Source of the DNA: an uncultured virus (IMG/VR IMGVR_UViG_3300032255_000165)
Lineage: Duplodnaviria > Heunggongvirae > Uroviricota > Caudoviricetes
Virus record (IMG/VR): IMGVR_UViG_3300032255_000165
Strand: one strand, 5' to 3'
DNA: 64,000 nucleotides
A program made the position numbers and the translations under genes. This document shows positions 29,820 to 62,266 of this stretch, in pieces (the first letter of the stretch is position 1; each line of letters begins with the position of its first letter). Below the pieces are notes generated by a model, which was not told the DNA's origin, did not search any database, and saw only the letters and a list, made by a program, of their open reading frames with translations.

Positions 29820-31019
29820 ATGAAATATAATCCACCCGTTGGCGGTGCCGCCAATGACCCATATATCACCGGCGACCCGGCCCAAGGCATCGAAGGTTCA
29901 GCCATCCCCGGCGAAGCTGTCGAAGTCCCCCAGCGTGAAATTGTAAACGTCATTACGACGGCTGGTCTAACACCCGATGCCGCCAACAACACGCAATTGG
30001 CCAGTGCTATTCAAAGTCTTATCGCCGCTGCTTTATCCGGTGTTTCCAAAGATAAAATCATTATTGAAAATGCCACTTTTGAAGCGTCCGTCACCGATGG
30101 AAAACCCGTTTATTTTGATGGCCCAAATTCTCGATTTGACGAGGCCGTGGCCGATGGAACCACCCTTAACCAAGCCATCGGTATTGCCGATGTAACGAAC
30201 GCCCAAGTTATTGCCTTTGGCGAAACCCCGGCGGGCCTTTTATCCGGCATGACACCGGGCGCAAAACAATATTTAGATGCCACAACACCCGGCGCAATCA
30301 CAGAAACCATCCCCGTCGATATTGTTAAAATCGGTATCGCCAAATCAGCCACCGTTTTATATGTCGATATTGATGCTTTGGCGAATGCCGGTGGTGTGTT
30401 GCAGTCGGTTAAAGTGTTTACGGCTTCCGGTACATGGAACAAAGACGCCGGAACCACAAAAATCGAAGTCGAAGTTAAAGCTGGCGGTGGTGGCGGTGGT
30501 GGTGGCTATCCTGATTATCATGTCGGTGCCGGTGGCGGCGAAGGAGGAAAATCATCAAAAATCATTGACGTATCCGCTGTTTCAAGTGTTGCGGTAACAG
30601 TTGGCACAGGTGGTCTTGGTGGCTTGGGTGCTGACGCTGCTGGCGCGGGTGCAACGAATGGATCAGCAGGCGGTTCATCCTCATTTGGGGCTTATCTTAG
30701 CGCCACAGGTGGCGAAGGTGCAATCCGATCCGGAAGTGGTGACAGCGGTTGGCCCGTGAGTGGTGGTATAGGATCAGGCGGTGATTTGAACTTACGCGGC
30801 GCAAGTTCACAGCAAGCAAATCGCGACCTTGTTTCTGACAATGCTTCCGGTTCGGGTGCCGGTGAGGGTGGCGGTAAAGGCGTCTATGGGACCGCTGTTA
30901 CAGGTACCACAGGATTGAATGGCGGCGGCGGAGCCGGTGGATCATACGGTGCCAGTGGTGCCGGTGGAAACGGCGGCGTTGGCGGTGCCGGTTATATAAT
31001 TATTAGGGAGTATAAATAA
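29820..31019 (+). CDS. tail fibre protein with glycine-rich C-terminal domain
   Basis: QREIVNVI..AGLTP...TQL anchor; FTASGTW...GGGGGG domain. Confidence 0.8.
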   Translation: MKYNPPVGGAANDPYITGDPAQGIEGSAIPGEAVEVPQREIVNVITTAGLTPDAANNTQLASAIQSLIAAALSGVSKDKIIIENATFEASVTDGKPVYFDGPNSRFDEAVADGTTLNQAIGIADVTNAQVIAFGETPAGLLSGMTPGAKQYLDATTPGAITETIPVDIVKIGIAKSATVLYVDIDALANAGGVLQSVKVFTASGTWNKDAGTTKIEVEVKAGGGGGGGGYPDYHVGAGGGEGGKSSKIIDVSAVSSVAVTVGTGGLGGLGADAAGAGATNGSAGGSSSFGAYLSATGGEGAIRSGSGDSGWPVSGGIGSGGDLNLRGASSQQANRDLVSDNASGSGAGEGGGKGVYGTAVTGTTGLNGGGGAGGSYGASGAGGNGGVGGAGYIIIREYK

Positions 31020-31582
31020 TGATTTACGCAAGAATTGAAAACAGCAAAGTCGTTGAAATGATCAATGATCAAGGTGGCGATATTAACGCCCTGTTCACCG
31101 CTGAAATTGTCGCCACATTGGTGCCTGATGATGGCACCGCCATCATTGGTGGAACGTGGGATGGCACGGTTTTTTCGCCGCCCGCACCCGAAATCATCAC
31201 ACTAACTGAAACCCAAACCATGCTGAAAAATCGCATTGATTCCGATGCCGAAAAAGCCCGCCTTAAATTCATCACCGGTGGTGCAGGTCAGGCACTTATA
31301 TATGAACGTAAAAGATCAGAAGCCGAAAAATGGTTGGCAGCCACATCACCATCGGCCACCGACTATCCATTGATCAAAGCGCGGGCTGAACGCTTGAATG
31401 CCACAACGCCGGACTATGCGGCAGTTGCAACGGAATGGAAAACCTTGGCCGATGCATGGATGGGTGTGGCGGCTGCAATCGAAGACATTCGAGAAGGTGC
31501 CAAAGAAGCCGTTGATGCCGCAACAACGGCGGCCGATGCATTAACGGCCGCAAATAATCTAACTTGGCCATCGCCAACATAA
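31019..31582 (+). CDS. tail fibre assembly/chaperone-like protein
   Basis: ARIEN..VVE...IGGTWDG, then helical domain ending LTWP; follows the fibre gene. Confidence 0.72.
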   Translation: MIYARIENSKVVEMINDQGGDINALFTAEIVATLVPDDGTAIIGGTWDGTVFSPPAPEIITLTETQTMLKNRIDSDAEKARLKFITGGAGQALIYERKRSEAEKWLAATSPSATDYPLIKARAERLNATTPDYAAVATEWKTLADAWMGVAAAIEDIREGAKEAVDAATTAADALTAANNLTWPSPT

Positions 31583-33423: not shown

Positions 33424-33697
33424 AATAACCTTTGAATTGTGGGTTGTTGTCTTGCTTGAACAAGTGAACTATAACCCATGACCACATATAAGGGAATGTT
33501 CAATAAAAATTAAATTTGAACACTGCAAACACAAATAATTAGTTTCAAGTTGTAGCCATTAACTTGAACCCCGAGCAAAATTTTAAAAACATTGTTTCAA
33601 GTTAGTGCAATGCGTTGAAATTGCATAACAATTCACGCCAAAATACTATTTTATGCAATACACAATTTAAATAAACTTGAAACAATTTAATTATCGT

Positions 33698-33791
33698 TTT
33701 TGAGGCTGTGTAAGCCTTTGCACATGAAAACCTAATAAAATTACGTCTCAAAAGGGGGCTGAAAAAGTCTCAAAACGCGCGCCCGGCCACA
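33698..33791 (+). repeat. Mu-like right end: R3 (inverted), R2, R1 transposase sites and terminal CA
   Basis: TTTTGAGGC 33698-33706 (inverted); GTCTCAAAA at 33745 and 33767 (22-bp period); ...CCACA at 33791. Confidence 0.72.
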
Positions 33792-33800
33792 GGGCTTAAT

Positions 33801-33980
33801 TGGTAGCGGAGGAGGGAGTTGTGAAAACAAACTAAAAAGTCTGTTTTCATCCTTTCAGGACCATCTCGCAGGCTCGATGTCTAAAAACGCCTCGCGCCGT
33901 TTTTCCGAACCACGGTGCCCTCGCCCGATCCCCCTCACCAACAAAAAAGCCCTACCAGCTTCGCCGGGGGGCTTGTTTAT
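33801..33980 (-). repeat. 180-bp tRNA-linked repeat unit carrying a 17-bp copy of the tRNA-Met 3' end
   Basis: TGGTAGCGGAGGAGGGA at 33801 and at 33981, exactly 180 bp apart; terminator hairpin at 33943-33974. Confidence 0.6.
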
Positions 33981-34025
33981 TGGTAGCGGAGGAGGGACTC
34001 GAACCCCCGACACGCGGATTATGAT
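33981..34025 (-). tRNA. 3' half of tRNA-Met(CAT): att-site fragment, not a complete gene
   Basis: Minus strand ATCATAATCCGCGTGTCGGGGGTTCGAGTCCCTCCTCCGCTACCA gives anticodon CAT, T-arm and CCA; 5' half absent. Confidence 0.88.
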
Positions 34026-34122
34026 ACGGATGTTATTTATTCAGTATCAATATGTTAGTTTGGAAAACTTTTTCTGATTTCATGTGTTATACTGCTAGTT
34101 ATCGTCATTTTGGAAAACTTTT

Positions 34123-34659
34123 ATGCAAGCCCTTACCTTGTTAATTTTTACGACCATATTTGTTGGTCTGACGGCCAACGGACCTGCAATGGCGCAATCG
34201 AAACCGGCGACGATCGCAGGCCAAGCCTGCGCGATCGATGGGGACAGTCTGGTGATTGGACCGGACGGGCCGAAGAAGAATGGCCGCTGTTCCCGGCAAG
34301 GGATCGAGGTTCGCCTTTCCGGGGTAGATGCGCCGGAGTGGTCGCAAACTTGCAAAGATCAGGACGACAACGACTGGCCGTGCGGGCAGGTTGCCGCGGC
34401 ACGTTTAAAGGCGCTGATCAACGGCAGGCATGCGACCTGTCAGGTCGTAACCAGAGGCCGTTATAAAAGAGCCATATCGGTGTGCCTGTCGGGTGGTGAA
34501 GACGTTGGCCGGGTGATGGTCCGGGAAGGACTGGCCGTGGCCTATCGCCGGTATTCAAAACGGTACGTGACCGCCGAAGACGCCGCCAAGGCCGCCGGGC
34601 TGGGCATATGGGGCGGTACATTTACGCGCCCGGAACAATATAGGCGTGAGAAAAAATAA
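34123..34659 (+). CDS. secreted thermonuclease (SNase-like) family protein
   Basis: Signal peptide; IDGDSL, VRLSGVDAPE, WPCG, MVREGLAVAY, GIWGG. Confidence 0.88.
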   Translation: MQALTLLIFTTIFVGLTANGPAMAQSKPATIAGQACAIDGDSLVIGPDGPKKNGRCSRQGIEVRLSGVDAPEWSQTCKDQDDNDWPCGQVAAARLKALINGRHATCQVVTRGRYKRAISVCLSGGEDVGRVMVREGLAVAYRRYSKRYVTAEDAAKAAGLGIWGGTFTRPEQYRREKK

Positions 34660-34662
34660 AAT

Positions 34663-34746
34663 TAACCCTTCATCCTTGCCGCGGGATCCGGCGCTGGAGC
34701 CAAAATAGTGGGCGACGACGCGTGTGGTAGAGCCACCCAGCAATCC
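34663..34746 (-). pseudogene. remnant 3' end of a holin allele
   Basis: Encodes LGGSTTRVVAHYFGSSAGSRGK, versus LGGSATSVVAYYFGSSAGSRGK in the intact gene at 36237-36737. Confidence 0.8.
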
Positions 34747-34868
34747 TATTCCGAAAGTTATCCACAGGGAGGCCGGGTAAAAAGAGACCAAAACCAAGAC
34801 CTACAACATGTTGTGTGGATAATGGGGGAGAACATAGGGATAACCACAACTTATTGATTATTTCAACG

Positions 34869-35065: not shown

Positions 35066-35296
35066 ATGAAGAAGACGGTTATAGATGCCCAAGCAGACAG
35101 CAAAGGCAATATCACTAAAGTTCGTTTTAAAGGCAATGTAGGCTTTACCCCGCTTAAAACAGCCATGGATATGGCAGATCGCGGTGAAATCAAAAATGCC
35201 CATTCGGTACGGCCATCACATGCCAAACCGCATTTACGAACAAACCCGGATAATCAACACAACAACAATCTGGATCATATGGCGGGCGACGACTAA
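35066..35296 (+). CDS. DUF3892-like small protein
   Basis: GNITKV...A...GEI...HLRTNPD...NNLD; strong AGGAG RBS. Confidence 0.72.
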   Translation: MKKTVIDAQADSKGNITKVRFKGNVGFTPLKTAMDMADRGEIKNAHSVRPSHAKPHLRTNPDNQHNNNLDHMAGDD

Positions 35297-35313
35297 TCGC
35301 CAATCTATAAATA

Positions 35314-35358
35314 GAATTCGGCTCTGTCATCATATAAATGGAGATGGAGCCGAATTTT
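35314..35358 (+). terminator. stem-loop between DUF3892-like gene and membrane protein gene
   Basis: AATTCGGCTC...GAGCCGAATT inverted repeat. Confidence 0.6.
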
Positions 35359-35385
35359 GATTATCCCAATTAAAACTTAGAGTTT

Positions 35386-36240
35386 ATGATGACTGATTTA
35401 ACAAAAACAATAAAATTAAAAAACACAGATAAAGCCCGTGCTGTTTTTCAAAAAACCATCACAAGCGATGAATACTTTAATGAAAATTTTGTTCGACAAA
35501 TTGATCAGCGATACCGGGAATTAAACACCTTTCGCGGAAATTTAACCAAATTTAATATTATTATTATTTTAGCTTTGTTGGCTAACCTTGCGACTGAAGA
35601 TTTTTCCGTTCCAATTATTCAGATGACAGTACAAAAAATTGATCAGTTCAAAGAATATTTGCTGTTATTTTCTTCCTTGATTGGAATTATTATTCGCTCA
35701 ATTCAGCTATATCAAGAACGATTGATACAAGTAATTGATGCCTGGGGAGAAGTAAAATTTAAAAATAAACACCTGAGAGGGCTTGCAAAATTATCATTCT
35801 CTGCTGGCGGAGTAAAAAGCTTCTTTAATATTGTATCCATGCCAAACCCTGATGGCATTCATATGGGAAAAGCCGCTTCGGTTTATGAAGTCATTTGGTT
35901 CACAATTTCCATTTTACTTATTTTATTCGCATCCATAACAATATTTATCATTCATATTATACTCATCATCGATATAATCAAAAATCCAAATTTATCATGG
36001 TGGGCAATGAGCATCCTACTCTTTATTATTATTCTGGTTGATATTTTGACTTGCATCAGCCTTATAACTGAATCAATTCCATTAAAATATATAGATTATC
36101 GTTTACTCAATCACTTGAATTATTTGCTAATTAATGATCCTGAAAACCATCAAAAATGGCACGAACGATTAGCAAAAGGTGAAGACATGTGGCCGCATGT
36201 GCCGGGGGTGGATAACAAGGATAACAAGAAGAAAAGCTAA
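35386..36240 (+). CDS. AT-rich multi-pass (about 4 TM) membrane protein
   Basis: Hydrophobic segments in two pairs; low GC; stop overlaps the holin stop. Confidence 0.75.
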   Translation: MMTDLTKTIKLKNTDKARAVFQKTITSDEYFNENFVRQIDQRYRELNTFRGNLTKFNIIIILALLANLATEDFSVPIIQMTVQKIDQFKEYLLLFSSLIGIIIRSIQLYQERLIQVIDAWGEVKFKNKHLRGLAKLSFSAGGVKSFFNIVSMPNPDGIHMGKAASVYEVIWFTISILLILFASITIFIIHIILIIDIIKNPNLSWWAMSILLFIIILVDILTCISLITESIPLKYIDYRLLNHLNYLLINDPENHQKWHERLAKGEDMWPHVPGVDNKDNKKKS

Positions 36241-36737
36241 CCCTTCATCTTTGCCAACAAGCCGTCTTTGCCGCGCGATCCGGCGCTGGAGCCGAAATAA
36301 TAAGCCACCACGGATGTCGCCGATCCACCCAACCAGCCGACGGCCAGATTGACGAAATCCATGCGGCCATCGATGACGCCGCTTGGCAGGAACGTCACCA
36401 CCCCGATATAACCGAAAAACGAAACCAATGTGATCACCGCCAGAATTGTCGGGGTATATCCGCCCACCGTCATTTCCCGTTTGCGGGCGCTGTCACGGTC
36501 ATTGGCATGAACGCGCAAGGTTTCCAGTTCAACTTCGCGGATGCGCATTTCAAGCTGGGCCATCAGGTCCGGGTTGGATTGCAACAGTTCCAGCGCCTTG
36601 TCCTGATCGTCTTCGCCGGTAATCGTTGCCACCAGCGTTTTCACGCCCAGCCCCAGTGCACCGCCAACCGGACCGCCCAAAGCCGTGCCGATGGTTGGCG
36701 ACAGTTTGCCAAGAACTTTTAAAAAATCATCCATCAT
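36237..36737 (-). CDS. holin-like protein (3TM-holin-type phage family)
   Basis: PTIGTALGGPVGG, DRDSARKRE, two TMs, YYFGSSAGS. Confidence 0.75.
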   Translation of the reverse strand: MMDDFLKVLGKLSPTIGTALGGPVGGALGLGVKTLVATITGEDDQDKALELLQSNPDLMAQLEMRIREVELETLRVHANDRDSARKREMTVGGYTPTILAVITLVSFFGYIGVVTFLPSGVIDGRMDFVNLAVGWLGGSATSVVAYYFGSSAGSRGKDGLLAKMKG

Positions 36738-36836
36738 TATCCCCTTTTAAAAAATATTTTCTATCCCACTTGCGAAATTTGATTTCGATTACTACCTATG
36801 GACTCCTGAAACCATAATTTTATTAAGGACTTTAAA

Positions 36837-37127
36837 ATGGCAACATCTATTGAAATAAAATGCATTAACAAGTCAGATCGACAAAATGCACATGAACGTA
36901 TTCAATTTATTGGCGGGACAAATGCCGACGGCACTCGCTGGAAAATAAGCCAAAAAGATGCCATCGACAGAATTGAAAGTGGGACAAATGCATTTCATGT
37001 TGGCAATACAATACTGACCAAAGTCAAGGTTATTGTCTCGACCAGCGCGGCCGGAAACAAATACATCAAGACCGAGAATGACGGCGAACAGCCAAACAAT
37101 CTTCTAAGCCTGCCAGAGTGCCCATGA
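36837..37127 (+). CDS. DUF3892 domain protein
   Basis: IKCINK...HERI..IGG...AIDRIE...[25 protein letters not shown]. Confidence 0.82.
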
Positions 37128-38380
37128 GTAAAAAAAAATTGTTGGTCGTTGCCGGTGCAGGGGCATCCATTGAATTAGGCATGCCCTCCGTATCAGAAGT
37201 AGGCGATATCCTTTCAAAGAAAGCCCAAGAGCGTTACCCACTTGCAAATGAACCCGATAATAATCTTTACAATTGGCTCGCAAGGACTGTGAAAGACTAT
37301 TGGGACAAAAGCGGAACAGGCCAAACACCAAATTTCGAAGACCTCATGCACTCAATATTTCTTCTTTCTGCGGTTTATCCGAAAGGAATTTTTACCTCTC
37401 CCTTAGGCGCCATGGTCAAAACAAATGATTTTCCAGATATTAAATTATTTGGGCGGACTATTGATCAAGCAAACCAAAATGTCTGGGGACATTTTAGTGA
37501 TTTTTTAACAGACACAATCATACAGAACTTTCGCGAAAAATGCCGCCACTTACATAACGAAAGAGCCAAAGAACTTGGTGAAATCCAGCAATTCTTTGCC
37601 ACTTTATCGAAGCAGTTCGAACTTTCCGTGGTTACTGTAAATTACGATAATATTATTAATCAATCTATCCCTGGACTTGAGAACGGCTTTGATCAAAAAG
37701 GAATTTTCAATGAAAAATTACTTTTTAACCGGGAACAATGGCCATGCATCCTTCACCTTCATGGATCCGTACATTTCGACATGCGCCATACTAAATACGA
37801 CCTCCATGACATTCAATGGGAACCAAACTTAAAAACCCAATTCAATCAGAATGCAGCGGGGCGAAGTGCAGTGCACGCGGATGAAGGGATAACTTTTCCA
37901 CAATCTGTAATCATTGCAGGACACGGCAAAACATCGCAAATTACCCGGCGACCATTTCGCACCTACTACTCTGAATTGGACAGGCTGGCGAACCAGTCTG
38001 ACGCGTTAATTTCCCTAGGTTATGGTTTTGGGGACAGTCACCTGAACCAAGCATTTGAAACTTATAGAGATAACCGAAAACGCCCTGTGGTAATTGTCGA
38101 CTTCGCCGATGATAATTCTATTTCTGTTTCTGCGGCTGGAAATGAATGTAATGATCCTTCAGGAACTATTCCAATGGCCATGTGCGTTTTCAAAACAGAT
38201 TCTGGTTCCATGAAAGCTCTTGGATATTCAACACCGATAGACATAAAAGATATTAAAGACCAAAAAGCATTTGTTTTAAGTAATGACATAGATACTCCAT
38301 TATCAATTTGGTATAATGGAATGCTGGAGGCTTGCCGACATCCTGATAAAATCTTAGCACAGCTTCAAATGCGGCAATGA
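37124..38380 (+). CDS. SIR2-like (SIR2_2) domain protein, putative NADase
   Basis: [35 protein letters not shown] overlap with the DUF3892 stop. Confidence 0.85.
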
Positions 38381-38391
38381 AATCAATTTAA

Positions 38392-38805
38392 TCACCCTCC
38401 CCTTATCAAATCAGCCACGCGGGTGGCGCGGTCACCGACCTGTGTCGCCCAGCGACTGTCGAGCGCATGACCGGCTGCGGCATCGAAATCACCGGCCTGT
38501 AACGATGCCAGCATGTTTTTGAATTTGGACAAACGCGGCCAGCCCAGATTGAAACACATATTGACCAGCGCCCGCCCCGGCGCGTCCGGCAAATCCCGCC
38601 ACCACGGGACAACCCTGTCCAGTTCGATGCGGGTGCGTCCGATGTCGTTTTCCAGCAGATAATCGGCTTCGGATTCTGTAATACCCATGTCATCCAGATT
38701 GCGACCAACGCCGATGGTCATTTTGCCGACGCTGTCGGTGTAGGGTTTCAGACGCACCCCTTCGTCCCGGATCAGATCCTGTTTCAGTTTGTCCCAGTCA
38801 ACCAT
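38392..38805 (-). CDS. endolysin, T4-like lysozyme family
   Basis: DEGVRLKPYTDSVGKMTIGVGRN (E...D...T triad), NMCFNLG, SRWATQV. Confidence 0.9.
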   Translation of the reverse strand: MVDWDKLKQDLIRDEGVRLKPYTDSVGKMTIGVGRNLDDMGITESEADYLLENDIGRTRIELDRVVPWWRDLPDAPGRALVNMCFNLGWPRLSKFKNMLASLQAGDFDAAAGHALDSRWATQVGDRATRVADLIRGG

Positions 38806-38806
38806 T

Positions 38807-39118
38807 TTAATTTCTTCCTTTGCGCTTTGATGAAACAGCCTGATTTTTTTCAAGCAAGGCCCCGGTCAAATCTTTAATATCTTTGCGCAGGCCTTTGAGT
38901 TCGTCGATCAGACGGCTCTCGACCTCTTTTAAATGGGCGACAGAGGCGTATTTTTCGGAAACTTCCAACCGGTAATCATCGTGTCGCTGCCCCTGACGGC
39001 TGATCCGGGCATGTAAGGATTGATCACTGCGATAGGTATGAACCCAATTCAGGCCGATGAAGCCTAAAAGCAAACCGATCACCCACGCAAAAACTTCCCA
39101 AATAACCGGATCAGTCAT
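38807..39118 (-). CDS. N-terminal TM coiled-coil protein in lysis cassette
   Basis: One TM, then YASVAHLKEVESRL coiled coil. Confidence 0.68.
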   Translation of the reverse strand: MTDPVIWEVFAWVIGLLLGFIGLNWVHTYRSDQSLHARISRQGQRHDDYRLEVSEKYASVAHLKEVESRLIDELKGLRKDIKDLTGALLEKNQAVSSKRKGRN

Positions 39119-39136: not shown

Positions 39137-39700
39137 TTATATAGGCTGAGGCCATGTCAGATTGCTTGCGGCCGTCATGGCATCCGCAGCCGTTGTGGCG
39201 GCGTCGATGGCTTCTTTTGATCCTTCGCGGATATTTTCAATCAGAACGGCGCTGGTTATCCATACATCGTTTTTAGTTTTCCATTCGGTCGCCACGGCCG
39301 CGTAATCAGGTGTTGTTGCATTCAACCGTTCGGCCCGCGCCTTGATCAACGGATAATCGCTGGCCACAGGCGAAGTGGCCGCGAGCCAGCTTTCGGCTTC
39401 GGCCCGTTTTCGTTCATAGATAAGGGCTTGTCCGGCACCGCCGGTGATGAATTTCAGACGGGTATTTTCGGCTTCGGAATCGACACGGTTTTTAAGCAAT
39501 GTTTGCGTATCGATCAGGGGAATGGTTTCCGGCACTGGCGCTGTGAAGGCCGTGCCATCCCACGCCGCGCCGATCACGGCCGTGCCGTCATCTGGAATCA
39601 AAGTGGCGACGATTTCCGGTGTGAACATTTGATTAATATCGCCGCCCTGATCATCGATCAATTCGACGACAATATTTTTTTCAATTCTTGGATGGATCAT
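39137..39700 (-). CDS. tail fibre assembly/chaperone-like protein
   Basis: 141/187 identical (hand count) to 31019-31582. Confidence 0.75.
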   Translation of the reverse strand: MIHPRIEKNIVVELIDDQGGDINQMFTPEIVATLIPDDGTAVIGAAWDGTAFTAPVPETIPLIDTQTLLKNRVDSEAENTRLKFITGGAGQALIYERKRAEAESWLAATSPVASDYPLIKARAERLNATTPDYAAVATEWKTKNDVWITSAVLIENIREGSKEAIDAATTAADAMTAASNLTWPQPI

Positions 39701-39701
39701 T

Positions 39702-40904
39702 TTATTTATACTCCTCGATGATTACAAAACCGGGTCCGCCTGTGCCACCGGCACCGGCCACAGCGGTACCGCCTGCACCACAGGCACCACCGCCACCACC
39801 GCCACCATTTGCGCCGTCCTGCCCGGCAGTTCCGGCAAGCCACGCACCGGGACCACCGCCTTCGCCGCCACCATTGCCGCCCTGATTTGAATTTGTGGTG
39901 ACTTCACGAAGACCTTGCGTGCCAACCGCGCCGCGCAGATTAATATCGCCGGATGATCCAAGGCCGCCGGTGCCGCCCCAGCCGTCATCGCCGCCACCAG
40001 ACCGGTAGCCACCTCCACCGCCGGTCGCGGACAAATACGCGCCGAACGACGTTGTGCCGCCGGTGCCACCATTGGTCATGCCCGCGCCACTACCATCGGA
40101 AGGATTTCCGGGTGTGCCGCCGAGCCCTACCGTAACTGCAACCGAAGAAATTCCAAGGGCAATGATATCAAGCAGCCTTTCAGCACGACCACCCTGACCG
40201 CCGCCACCACCGACATAATTATCGGCGTATCCGCCACCACCGCCACCACCACCACCGCAGAGGCGTACTCTGATTTTTGTTGTCCCGGCATCCGGCGTCC
40301 AAGTACCGGAAGCCGTGAACACCTTGACCGCTTGCAGCACGCCACCGGCATCAGATTCGGCATCGATGTCGACAAACATGATATCGGCCGCTTTGGCGAT
40401 GCCGATGCGGACCTTGTCCGTCGGTTCCGTCACGTTCAATGCACCCGCTGTGGTGCCATCCAGATAATAACGCGCGCCCGGTGTCAACCCGGACATCAGC
40501 CCGGCGCGGGTTTCACCAAAACTGACAACTTCAGAATTCGTGACATCAGCAATACCCACCGCATTGTTGCTGGCCGTACCGTCGGCAATGGCTTGGGTAA
40601 AATTGCTGTTAACGCTGTCCCAGCGAACGACTTCACCATCGGCGACACCGGCGGCAAAGGTCGCCGACTTGATTATCACGGCTTTCGATGCGCCGCTAAA
40701 CATTTGCGTGATCGCTTGCGTTAACTGGGTGGTATCATTTTCATCCGGCGTCAAACCGGCCCCCGTAATAACATTGACAATTTCCCGTTGCGGGTCTTCA
40801 ATGGCCGCCGCAGGCGGGATGCTACCAGCTTCGCCGGTTGTCGCATTAAAATCAACGTATGGATCATTGGTTGTGGCAGCACCAACCGGGGCTTGATATT
40901 TCAT
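39702..40904 (-). CDS. tail fibre protein with glycine-rich domain
   Basis: Colinear homolog of 29820-31019. Confidence 0.8.
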   Translation of the reverse strand: MKYQAPVGAATTNDPYVDFNATTGEAGSIPPAAAIEDPQREIVNVITGAGLTPDENDTTQLTQAITQMFSGASKAVIIKSATFAAGVADGEVVRWDSVNSNFTQAIADGTASNNAVGIADVTNSEVVSFGETRAGLMSGLTPGARYYLDGTTAGALNVTEPTDKVRIGIAKAADIMFVDIDAESDAGGVLQAVKVFTASGTWTPDAGTTKIRVRLCGGGGGGGGGYADNYVGGGGGQGGRAERLLDIIALGISSVAVTVGLGGTPGNPSDGSGAGMTNGGTGGTTSFGAYLSATGGGGGYRSGGGDDGWGGTGGLGSSGDINLRGAVGTQGLREVTTNSNQGGNGGGEGGGPGAWLAGTAGQDGANGGGGGGGACGAGGTAVAGAGGTGGPGFVIIEEYK

Positions 40905-46386: not shown

Positions 46387-47187
46387 TTATCCTGGGAGGC
46401 GGCCTTGCCATACCTTGATTTCAATGATTTTTTCCTTTGCCGGATCGTAGATGCAATTATAGATCACATTCGCCCAGGCGCCAAACCCATTTTGAAATTT
46501 TAGTTTGTCGCCAATGTAGATCACCAGCCCTTTTTCCTTGTCATACCAGCGGTAACGGTCAAATTTGGTTTCAGCCCAGCTATCGGTCCATTCAAAAGAA
46601 TATCTGGATCGTCGTTCGATTTGCGGGCGGCACTGTGACGTCGCTTCGATCAGGGTGGTTTCCGCATAACAGACAAGATCAGGGCGGCATTTGGCTTGTT
46701 TTTCCTGTTCTGCCTTGGCTTTTTTAGCAGCGGCCAATTCAGCCAGCTTTATTTTTTCCTGTTCAGCCTGGGCTTTTTTCTCTTTATCCAATTTCAAGGC
46801 TTCCAGCTTGGCCTGTTTTTTCCTTTCATCGGCAGCCCGTGCCATTTCAATTCGTTTTATTTTCCTCGCCGACAGAATGGCGTCATATTGTTTTTTTGTT
46901 GTCGCCCCGGCTTCTTTAGCCGCGGCATATTCACGGGCATCTACAAAACCTTTTTCTACAGCCACCTGATCTTTTTGCCACGAACCCAGGTTATATAAAA
47001 AAACCAACACAACAAACGACGAAATCATAGTCCGAAGCGACCATTTTTTTGCCCGTAATGGCGGTCTGTCCGGATTTTTTCTTTTTCGTATTTTTCCGAT
47101 TATCAGTGATACAATAAAAACCGGCACAGACAACAGCAAAGCCAACAGCGAAAATGCGACGCCCCAGGATATAATAAATTCAAGCAT
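46387..47187 (-). CDS. membrane-anchored hypothetical protein (moron)
   Basis: Two TMs, Lys/Ala coiled coil, C-terminal FQNGFGAW domain; own TTGACG-N18-TAACAT promoter at 47254-47225. Confidence 0.72.
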   Translation of the reverse strand: MLEFIISWGVAFSLLALLLSVPVFIVSLIIGKIRKRKNPDRPPLRAKKWSLRTMISSFVVLVFLYNLGSWQKDQVAVEKGFVDAREYAAAKEAGATTKKQYDAILSARKIKRIEMARAADERKKQAKLEALKLDKEKKAQAEQEKIKLAELAAAKKAKAEQEKQAKCRPDLVCYAETTLIEATSQCRPQIERRSRYSFEWTDSWAETKFDRYRWYDKEKGLVIYIGDKLKFQNGFGAWANVIYNCIYDPAKEKIIEIKVWQGRLPG

Positions 47188-47276
47188 TTTTAATTTCGCC
47201 CCCACCAATACAGTTATTGGGCGAATGTTAACTTTAAATAATATCACGCGTCAAGCGTGTCATGATTTTAGCACAT

Positions 47277-61583: not shown

Positions 61584-62252
61584 TCATTTTATGTTTATTT
61601 TCATATAATTAAGTTTTTTATCATCAAATGTTTTAAAACAATCAAGCGCGAATCTAAGAGCCATTATTACATTTTCATAACGGCAACCATGTTTTTTTAT
61701 TTGCCGCCGCAATGCGACACGTTCAACAATCAGATCCGTTAACACAACTGCTACTGATGTAAAATTATTATTCTGCTTACATGGTTTTAATGTCAGCAAA
61801 TCAATTTTGTTTATAGCTTTCAGCCATGGCTCCAAATATTCATGAATTAATCGGCCAACTGGTTCATCCGCCGCAAAAACTTGACGTTCATCACCAGACA
61901 AACGGACTAATCCACCGCCGGAATTTTCCAAATCAACACACCCAGCCGATTCACGTCTGATTTTTTCATGCCAAAGAATGTCAATTTGTTCCAGCATCGT
62001 TTTTTGAGAATGATCCAACGATGTTCCAGTGGTTAAGGCTTTGACCGGGTCGCGCCGCAACGAGCGTTGTTTTACAGTTTCCGGTGTTAAAACACTTTCA
62101 ACCGCTTCAGCGGCTTTATCCATTCCTTCAAGGATTAAAACATTATGCAACCGCCGCACCACCGATTTTCCATGCGGAGTTTTTGCAGCTTCCGTTGCAA
62201 TATCAGCAAAACACTTAGCCGTTTTGGCCGTTGATCCTTGAACTTTTCGCAT
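61584..62252 (-). CDS. hypothetical protein at late-regulator position
   Basis: AAAGGA RBS; lies between ori and late promoter/cos. Confidence 0.65.
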   Translation of the reverse strand: MRKVQGSTAKTAKCFADIATEAAKTPHGKSVVRRLHNVLILEGMDKAAEAVESVLTPETVKQRSLRRDPVKALTTGTSLDHSQKTMLEQIDILWHEKIRRESAGCVDLENSGGGLVRLSGDERQVFAADEPVGRLIHEYLEPWLKAINKIDLLTLKPCKQNNNFTSVAVVLTDLIVERVALRRQIKKHGCRYENVIMALRFALDCFKTFDDKKLNYMKINIK

Positions 62253-62266
62253 CAATATTTCCTTTC

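Follow-up and report, generated by a model that had tools for sequence, protein, structure and literature searches.

The subject of this analysis is a set of four genes that lie in the lysis region of the second of two prophages in a 64,000-nucleotide stretch of DNA (the window), the first 64 kb of the 76,314-base provirus record IMGVR_UViG_3300032255_000165 from an uncultured member of the Caudoviricetes. On the minus strand, this region contains an endolysin gene (38392 to 38805; Pfam Phage_lysozyme, E = 5.6e-15; PHROG 7) and a predicted 3TM-type holin gene (36237 to 36737; 166 amino acids (aa); PHROG 1544; Atlas 3TM-holin clusters, 0.96). All four cargo genes are on the plus strand, antisense to these late genes, and form two cassettes that flank the holin gene, as a first-pass annotation had described. 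Cassette A consists of DUF3892-A (35066 to 35296; 76 aa) followed by the gene for a four-helix membrane protein (35386 to 36240; 284 aa, 33% GC), and cassette B consists of DUF3892-B (36837 to 37127; 96 aa) followed by the gene for a SIR2-like predicted NADase (37124 to 38380; 418 aa). We consider it probable, on balance, that the cassettes are two separately acquired accessory inserts and that their four genes are largely independent cargo expressed in lysogeny, most likely anti-phage in function, rather than a DUF3892 sensor combined with swappable effectors, as that annotation had proposed.

Insertion history of the lysis region

A search with the holin-like gene found four loci, of which two (L168 and L169) are close relatives of the window (90-92%). 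In L168, the endolysin, holin, and thermonuclease (SNase) genes are contiguous and both slots are empty; in L169, a DUF6527 gene occupies the first gap, and a pair of genes, one helix-turn-helix (HTH)-like and one DUF7699, occupies the second. Because the slots are empty or otherwise filled in these two close relatives, the inserts are accessory. The cargo genes have a GC content of 33-45% compared with 57-59% for the holin, endolysin, and SNase genes, and none of 82 endolysin/holin loci contained DUF3892, the membrane protein family, or this SIR2 family. Contigs aligned over the region revealed no joint that skips either cassette, a result that was uninformative.

Further, we detected a decayed copy of the holin 3' end at approximately 34651 to 34791 on the minus strand (77% identity over 74 nucleotides (nt) to 36265-36338; tblastn E = 5e-12), which the first-pass annotation did not list. 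The copy remains joined to the SNase gene, as the holin gene is in L168, and window positions 34739-34183 align contiguously to the L168 holin end and SNase gene. This decayed tail seems to mark the point at which cassette A inserted, as a scar of that event, and its position beside cassette A implies that cassette A would have entered by an event separate from that of cassette B. The SNase gene itself (34123 to 34659, plus strand; Pfam SNase, E = 2.7e-15) follows the holin gene in both L168 and L169 and is an older antisense resident of the phage family. We note that the SNase has an N-terminal signal-like segment, that its gene is antisense to the late genes, and that the gene preceding it in L168 is integrase-like (DUF6538). 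The slots of the relatives and the holin remnant bear out the view that the two cassettes are independent. Judged from these sequence comparisons, the lysis region is a prophage moron/accessory hotspot and a new example of a known arrangement.

We treat the gene at 36237-36737 as a predicted holin gene from the Atlas clusters and synteny. It has no match to the Pfam holin family PF11351 at E 0.1, and PF11351 is found on only 11-44% of the members of the Atlas 3TM-holin clusters that it resembles; of 80 endolysin loci, many of which are redundant, 41 have a homologue close to the endolysin gene. Directly upstream of the endolysin gene, a minus-strand gene (38807 to 39118) encodes a 103-aa protein with an N-terminal hydrophobic segment and only weak matches to PHROGs of unknown function; it is possibly a second lysis gene.

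The two DUF3892 genes

Each of the two small genes passes the Pfam cut-off (22.3 bits) for DUF3892 (PF13031), which confirms the family assignment that the first-pass annotation had given them. The first open reading frame (ORF), DUF3892-A, scores 31.5 bits (E = 2.5e-7) and represents a divergent subfamily with 72 matches including itself (55-73% identity), and DUF3892-B scores 74.3 bits (E = 1.1e-20; PHROG 8224) and represents the canonical subfamily. They are the sole two DUF3892 matches across the 76-kb record, and the H/Y-L/I-R/K-T..D....NNL motif said to be common to them is present in both translations. BLASTP of DUF3892-A against DUF3892-B gave no alignment, and a profile-profile comparison gave 19% identity (E = 0.003, probability 10.6%), so tandem duplication of one DUF3892 gene was rejected. 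From these comparisons, we assign the two genes to distant subfamilies, which argues against a local duplication.

Literature searches for DUF3892/PF13031 returned predictions, and no experiment was found. The accessible text of one report predicts that DUF3892 is linked to defence and finds it behind CapH/CapP (10.1101/2022.04.27.489752), and that of the Lipocone paper describes fusions of DUF3892 to Min-Wnt effectors, proposing a role in RNA or ribosome sensing and a dsRBD/HPF-like fold (10.1101/2025.01.14.632903). The CapH/CapP operons and Min-Wnt fusions involve the same Pfam family as both copies here, but no HTH or metallopeptidase regulator lies beside either copy in the window, and neither is part of a fusion. 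The DUF3892-B structure model (predicted local distance difference test (pLDDT), 84.5) had a best Protein Data Bank (PDB) match of Z 3.1, no Foldseek match at E <= 0.001, and no solved relative; these fold searches did not recover the proposed dsRBD/HPF-like fold. Neither DUF3892 protein matches the PADLOC library.

The partner genes and their coupling to DUF3892

The membrane protein of cassette A has four hydrophobic segments, seen both by hydropathy and in the family average, in agreement with the earlier description of a four-transmembrane protein after DUF3892-A. It has no Pfam, PADLOC, PHROG, or NCBIfam match, and its family comprises 59 matches including itself, mostly at 17-36% identity. 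Its structure model is confident (pLDDT 88.9), and the fold search gave helical bundles (best Z 9.0) and no clear PDB match. The protein matched in none of 401 genomes, a search in which the only positive control was the gene of the window itself, and a plasmid search with its relative P0124 gave no match.

The SIR2 assignment of the second gene of cassette B was likewise upheld, with matches to Pfam SIR2_2 (E = 1.3e-10) and PADLOC SIR2 (E = 5.8e-17). The motifs GAGAS, TxNYD, HLHGS, and GYGFxD, which are those of SIR2-type NADases, are intact at positions 11, 171, 211, and 299 and are conserved in 57-66 of 66 aligned relatives. The family has 381 matches. The protein has a C-terminal extension of about 90 aa, and the last 88 residues of the protein are conserved within the family (mean column identity 0.50); this extension could be a sensor of its own. 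The nearest solved chain is 8w9l (E = 6e-9), which we take to be a Sir2-HerA chain, and the protein falls far under the NCBIfam SIR2_antiphage cut-off (17 versus 500 bits). All four cargo ORFs are intact, with conserved residues present. We note two other loci of this SIR2 family. First, the sole viral member found (L047:3897-6849) is split into two frames and is located between a tail-fibre assembly gene and a tail sheath gene, another moron slot. Second, at L021:3561-4982, a 473-aa ORF with no Pfam match ends 19 nt before a family member and is a possible partner in one genome.

Each cassette had been read as a unit of DUF3892 and partner. This stands for cassette B, in which the ATG start of the SIR2 gene overlaps the stop of DUF3892-B (ATGA), and is doubtful for cassette A, in which DUF3892-A and the membrane protein gene are separated by an 89-nt gap with a stable hairpin (35307 to 35364, plus strand; -27.8 kcal/mol, z -4.89). 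None of 200 shuffled sequences was as stable, and the hairpin matches no Rfam family. Hairpins occurred downstream of 24 of 53 A-family genes compared with 8 of 53 in-gene controls (p = 0.001) and of 19 of 67 B-family genes compared with 10 of 67 (p = 0.09). Further, the GC content of DUF3892-A (45%) differs from that of the membrane protein gene (33%). We conclude that the hairpin is likely a terminator or processing site and that cassette A is probably split and not one operon.

Neighbours of the SIR2 family

We examined 47 loci of the SIR2 family (46 genome, 1 viral) over up to 5 kb on each side, less on short contigs, with profiles of both DUF3892 subfamilies. DUF3892 was found near the SIR2 gene in none of the 47 loci in the flanks examined, and a match anywhere in the genome was present in only 4 of the 46 carrier genomes. 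The SIR2 family therefore does not need DUF3892. In a survey of 83 neighbouring proteins from 43 loci (four near-duplicates were dropped), no family occurred more than twice; the neighbours included RES/HEPN, ImmA, ApeA, HicB, integrase, relaxase, type I restriction, TIR, caspase, PemK, and housekeeping proteins. The closest SIR2 locus (L039, 60%) is cut upstream, and relatives P0002-P0004 (56-59%) fall outside the survey.

These results bear on the possibility that DUF3892-B is an antitoxin-like inhibitor that restrains SIR2 in the lysogen, with cassette A as unrelated cargo. In many toxin-antitoxin pairs, a small gene precedes a toxic one and is coupled to it, a layout that the gene order and ATGA overlap of cassette B fit, and the intact catalytic motifs of SIR2 would suit the part of a toxin. 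However, all 47 SIR2 relatives are without DUF3892 nearby, 42 of the 46 carrier genomes are without any match, and no small partner recurs at the SIR2 loci, which makes such a role very unlikely. The same survey was used to consider membership of known SIR2 systems. The protein has the SIR2_2 domain with intact motifs in common with Sir2-HerA, SPARSA, ThsA, and DSR1/2, but its neighbours in the window are DUF3892-B and the endolysin, neither HerA, Argonaute, nor ThsB is present in the window, no such family recurs among the 83 neighbours, and, at 418 aa, it is far shorter than the DSR proteins; membership of Sir2-HerA, SPARSA, Thoeris, and DSR was rejected.

Genes downstream of DUF3892

A census of DUF3892 loci from viral, metagenome, and genome searches reduced 136 profile hits to 123 genes by dropping 12 near-duplicates and one short hit (at one dropped locus, L092, the protein that follows is similar to the product of the L099 TIR gene); neighbours were chosen by a crude longest-ORF rule, and some are spurious. 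Neither the membrane protein family nor this SIR2 family was found beside any of the 123 genes, except for a weak Dsr1-like match at L125, and neither adjoined DUF3892 at 13 further genome loci. DUF3892 is often solitary: of 109 genes with at least 600 nt downstream, 52 lack a co-directional ORF after them, and such an ORF lies within 10 nt in only 5. In annotated plasmid and phage records, 7 of 10 copies (10 of 41 listed) have no co-directional gene within 300 nt. PADLOC matches were no more frequent downstream than upstream (7/61 versus 10/62; Fisher p = 0.60), with two cut ORFs and the hand-added gene of L125 left out of the downstream set. The proposal that DUF3892 is a modular partner with interchangeable effectors thus finds little support, since neither pair recurs in the loci examined and defence effectors are not enriched downstream. 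A defence-type neighbourhood for DUF3892 in general is supported.

A minority of the census genes departs from this pattern. Eleven of the 123 (one of them added by hand) are followed by a defence-type gene, namely OLD-like ATPase (two), TIR (two), Dsr1, PLD, PemK, DUF3800, DUF2188, DUF2513, and a PDC-S19 fragment, with PemK, DUF3800, and DUF2513 counted as defence-type by our own judgement. L048, L052, and L008 share genome G008, on which the PLD case rests, and L051 and L027 share G027; both genomes are unpublished. A downstream hairpin is present at none of the 11 loci but at 43 of the 109 others (p = 0.007, or 0.013 if L052 is removed), and these pairs are therefore probably co-transcribed.

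Placement of DUF3892 in phages and mobile elements

At 27 viral DUF3892 loci, we scanned 119 of the 136 listed flanking ORFs in PHROGs. Fourteen loci are close to a gene for virion, packaging, or lysis functions, and in 11 of these DUF3892 is antisense to it (two-sided p = 0.057); with L152 added, the count is 12 of 15 (p = 0.035). At five other viral loci, DUF3892 lies downstream of a CI-like repressor gene on the same strand, and HTH-ImmA/CapP pairs and CapH/CapP-like regulators recur beside DUF3892. These placements suggest that DUF3892 may be a gene that functions by itself and is expressed during lysogeny or stress.

Some individual loci illustrate the range of settings. In L058, L060, L061, L062, and L153, several of them lambdoid prophages, DUF3892 is the last gene behind the CI-like repressor, a placement for lysogenic expression. 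In L154:305-4279, it is antisense in a lysis region that encodes a spanin and an endolysin; an ImmA-like gene diverges from it, and no large effector follows. On a Cupriavidus plasmid (L291:2489-4990), it is the first gene of a multiubiquitin-ThiF-DUF6527 operon that lies behind an HTH-ImmA pair of divergent orientation, and DUF6527 on its own occupies the endolysin-holin gap of L169. IS1595-family transposases adjoin DUF3892 genes of both subfamilies at L086, L091, L093, L113, L115, L118, L130, L066, L073, L185, and L274, the last judged by sequence likeness only. The IS1595-adjacent copies are probably passenger genes, which may explain the spread of DUF3892.

That many DUF3892 genes adjoin IS1595 transposases, integrases, and housekeeping genes also raises the question of whether the inserts are selfish or neutral hitchhikers with no role in defence, the membrane protein gene in particular being perhaps general cargo. 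The SIR2 relatives, too, adjoin housekeeping genes, and neither the membrane protein nor either DUF3892 protein has a PADLOC match. However, the four ORFs are intact and retain conserved residues, SIR2 matches defence-associated PADLOC SIR2 models, and DUF3892 recurs with CapH/CapP-like regulators, a defence link also drawn in the accessible part of 10.1101/2022.04.27.489752. We regard hitchhiking as an unlikely explanation.

Possible late transcription across the inserts

The AT-rich, 99-nt gap between the divergent holin and DUF3892-B genes (36738 to 36836) presumably contains the promoter of cassette B and possibly that of the holin gene. The best promoter-consensus matches there (8/12 on the plus strand; 9/12 on the minus strand, 36843-36814) are not significant, and 20 matches were found overall compared with 11.9 expected. 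On the late strand, no terminator was found between the endolysin and holin genes. The stops of the endolysin and SIR2 genes lie 11 nt apart, and the stop of the membrane protein gene overlaps that of the holin-like gene by 4 nt, which leaves no space for terminators between the genes. Weak late-strand terminators were seen at 35442 and 35175, and an intrinsic-terminator-like hairpin with a T tract (34942-34915, minus strand; 11 pairs, 6 of them GC, T tail, -19.1 kcal/mol; a consensus match only) lies beyond both cassettes. Further, no 78-nt window of the late strand has C at least twice G, and there is therefore no obvious Rho loading site.

Two observations argue against read-through: 1.65 kb of the late strand cannot be translated, and the weak 9/12 promoter match, found by consensus only, is directed at the holin gene. 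The late strand has 22-29 stops per frame across cassette B and 22-34 across cassette A, and no late-strand frame of more than 100 codons occurs within either insert. From this geometry, antisense read-through of late transcription across the SIR2 cassette is plausible. We note that a 223-aa gene without PHROG match (61584-62255), between the primase/helicase and terminase small subunit genes, could, to judge by its position, encode a late regulator or antiterminator, which would bear on read-through of the inserts.

The two prophages of the window

According to the ORF map, the plus strand up to about 33.4 kb belongs to a Mu-like phage, and from about 34 kb onward there is a second prophage, whose late genes are on the minus strand, both phage types being read from gene content. 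The two (1-33423, Mu-like, plus strand; 33976-64000, with Mu-type tail genes, minus strand) are arranged tail to tail. A likely attachment core resembling a tRNA 3' end (33976 to 34030) forms the left end of the right-hand prophage; it includes a 22-nt direct repeat with a partial repeat at 33796-33817, numerous unrelated contigs pile up at 33980-34025, and no complete tRNA gene was called at the core. A candidate integrase is located at the other end of the record.

The tail-fibre and assembly genes of the two prophages (29820-31582 and 39137-40904) are clearly related, which suggests exchange of receptor-binding modules. The Mu-like phage has, at its right end, an AT-rich stretch (33533-33700) with repeated direct and inverted motifs of 19-27 nt, probably transposase binding sites. 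Two other genes are counter-oriented or AT-richer accessory genes: one at the end of the Mu-like phage (32941-33423) for a 160-aa secreted-looking protein, and one in the second prophage, within its tail region (46387-47247), for a 286-aa membrane protein.

Discussion

We propose that DUF3892 is a small, self-contained, non-catalytic gene that would bring its own promoter. In cassette B, DUF3892-B and SIR2 would be co-transcribed and translationally coupled, and SIR2 would deplete NAD+ on infection through its own C-terminal sensor, merely sharing the DUF3892-B promoter. The DUF3892-A transcript of cassette A likely stops at the hairpin, and the membrane protein gene would be expressed separately or at a lower level. 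Once the prophage is induced, late transcription would cross both inserts in antisense as far as the terminator at 34942-34915, dampening expression of the cargo only partly.

Several points weigh against this explanation. Both inserts (2/2) begin with DUF3892, though it is rare in the sampled genomes (2-5%: 20/401, 7/400, 10/301, and 12/401). The ATGA coupling of DUF3892-B and SIR2 is unusual: 13 of 120 genes have the same overlap, none opening an ORF of more than 71 aa. Roughly one DUF3892 gene in ten is followed by a defence-type gene with no hairpin between them, and effector fusions with Min-Wnt are described in the accessible part of 10.1101/2025.01.14.632903. Further, the pairing counts leave out the SIR2 relatives P0002-P0004 and the contexts of all membrane protein relatives, and the anti-phage role of all four genes is a prediction.

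An alternative is that DUF3892 serves as a plug-in sensor or adaptor, which would bind a product of the infecting phage and switch on the effector encoded after it, whatever its kind (SIR2, the membrane protein, TIR, OLD-like, Dsr1, or PLD). The start of both inserts with DUF3892, the ATGA coupling, the variety of the 11 defence-type genes that follow it with no hairpin, the plasmid copy that heads a ubiquitin-like operon, and the RNA or ribosome sensing proposed for the Min-Wnt fusions (10.1101/2025.01.14.632903, accessible text) could all be read in this way. However, neither pair recurs in the loci examined and there is no downstream enrichment; a hairpin splits cassette A; and the two DUF3892 proteins are only 19% alike. 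The missing hairpins indicate co-transcription at most, and the effectors concerned belong to systems known to work without DUF3892. We therefore give this idea little credence. The rarity, the coupling, and the defence-followed cases fit promoter sharing as well as partnership, and we retain the explanation of largely independent cargo.

Antisense placement of prophage cargo has precedents. In the accessible text of PMC10884400, Tab of Pseudomonas phage JBD26 is described as an antisense moron in the late operon, expressed from the prophage by its own promoter. Like Tab, the cargo here is small, opposite to the late operon, and in a variable slot, and its own promoter is presumed. Tab, as described there, lies between terminase genes and is neutralised by the late-strand protein anti-Tab, whereas neither insert here has a late-strand frame of more than 100 codons, and the cargo families are unrelated to Tab. 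For Tha/Ith of Staphylococcus aureus phage 80alpha, the accessible text of PMC11087260 describes overlapping antisense transcripts as a switch that sets a prophage defence gene differently in lysogeny and in lysis. That defence gene belongs to the cI operon, and antisense transcription contributes no more than mild suppression alongside the Ith protein. Unlike Tha/Ith, the cargo here is itself an antisense unit inside the late operon. The arrangement is thus ordinary, since antisense morons in late operons and antisense damping have both been described (PMC10884400 and PMC11087260, in the parts accessible to us).

It would be different if DUF3892 were a general plug-in immune sensor or adaptor, whether alone, fused, or before unrelated effectors, of which two distant versions were here wired to new families of stand-alone SIR2 and membrane effectors, both switched off by late antisense transcription. 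We judge this improbable; if the adaptor idea proved correct, a widespread domain of unknown function would gain a role, and many new systems could be reached through it. Overall, the value of the locus lies in three defence candidates, identified by sequence, in a documented hotspot: a 418-aa SIR2 family with 381 matches and no fixed partner, a membrane protein family with no library or PDB match, and DUF3892, whose placement in phages, often alone, suggests a stand-alone function in lysogeny.

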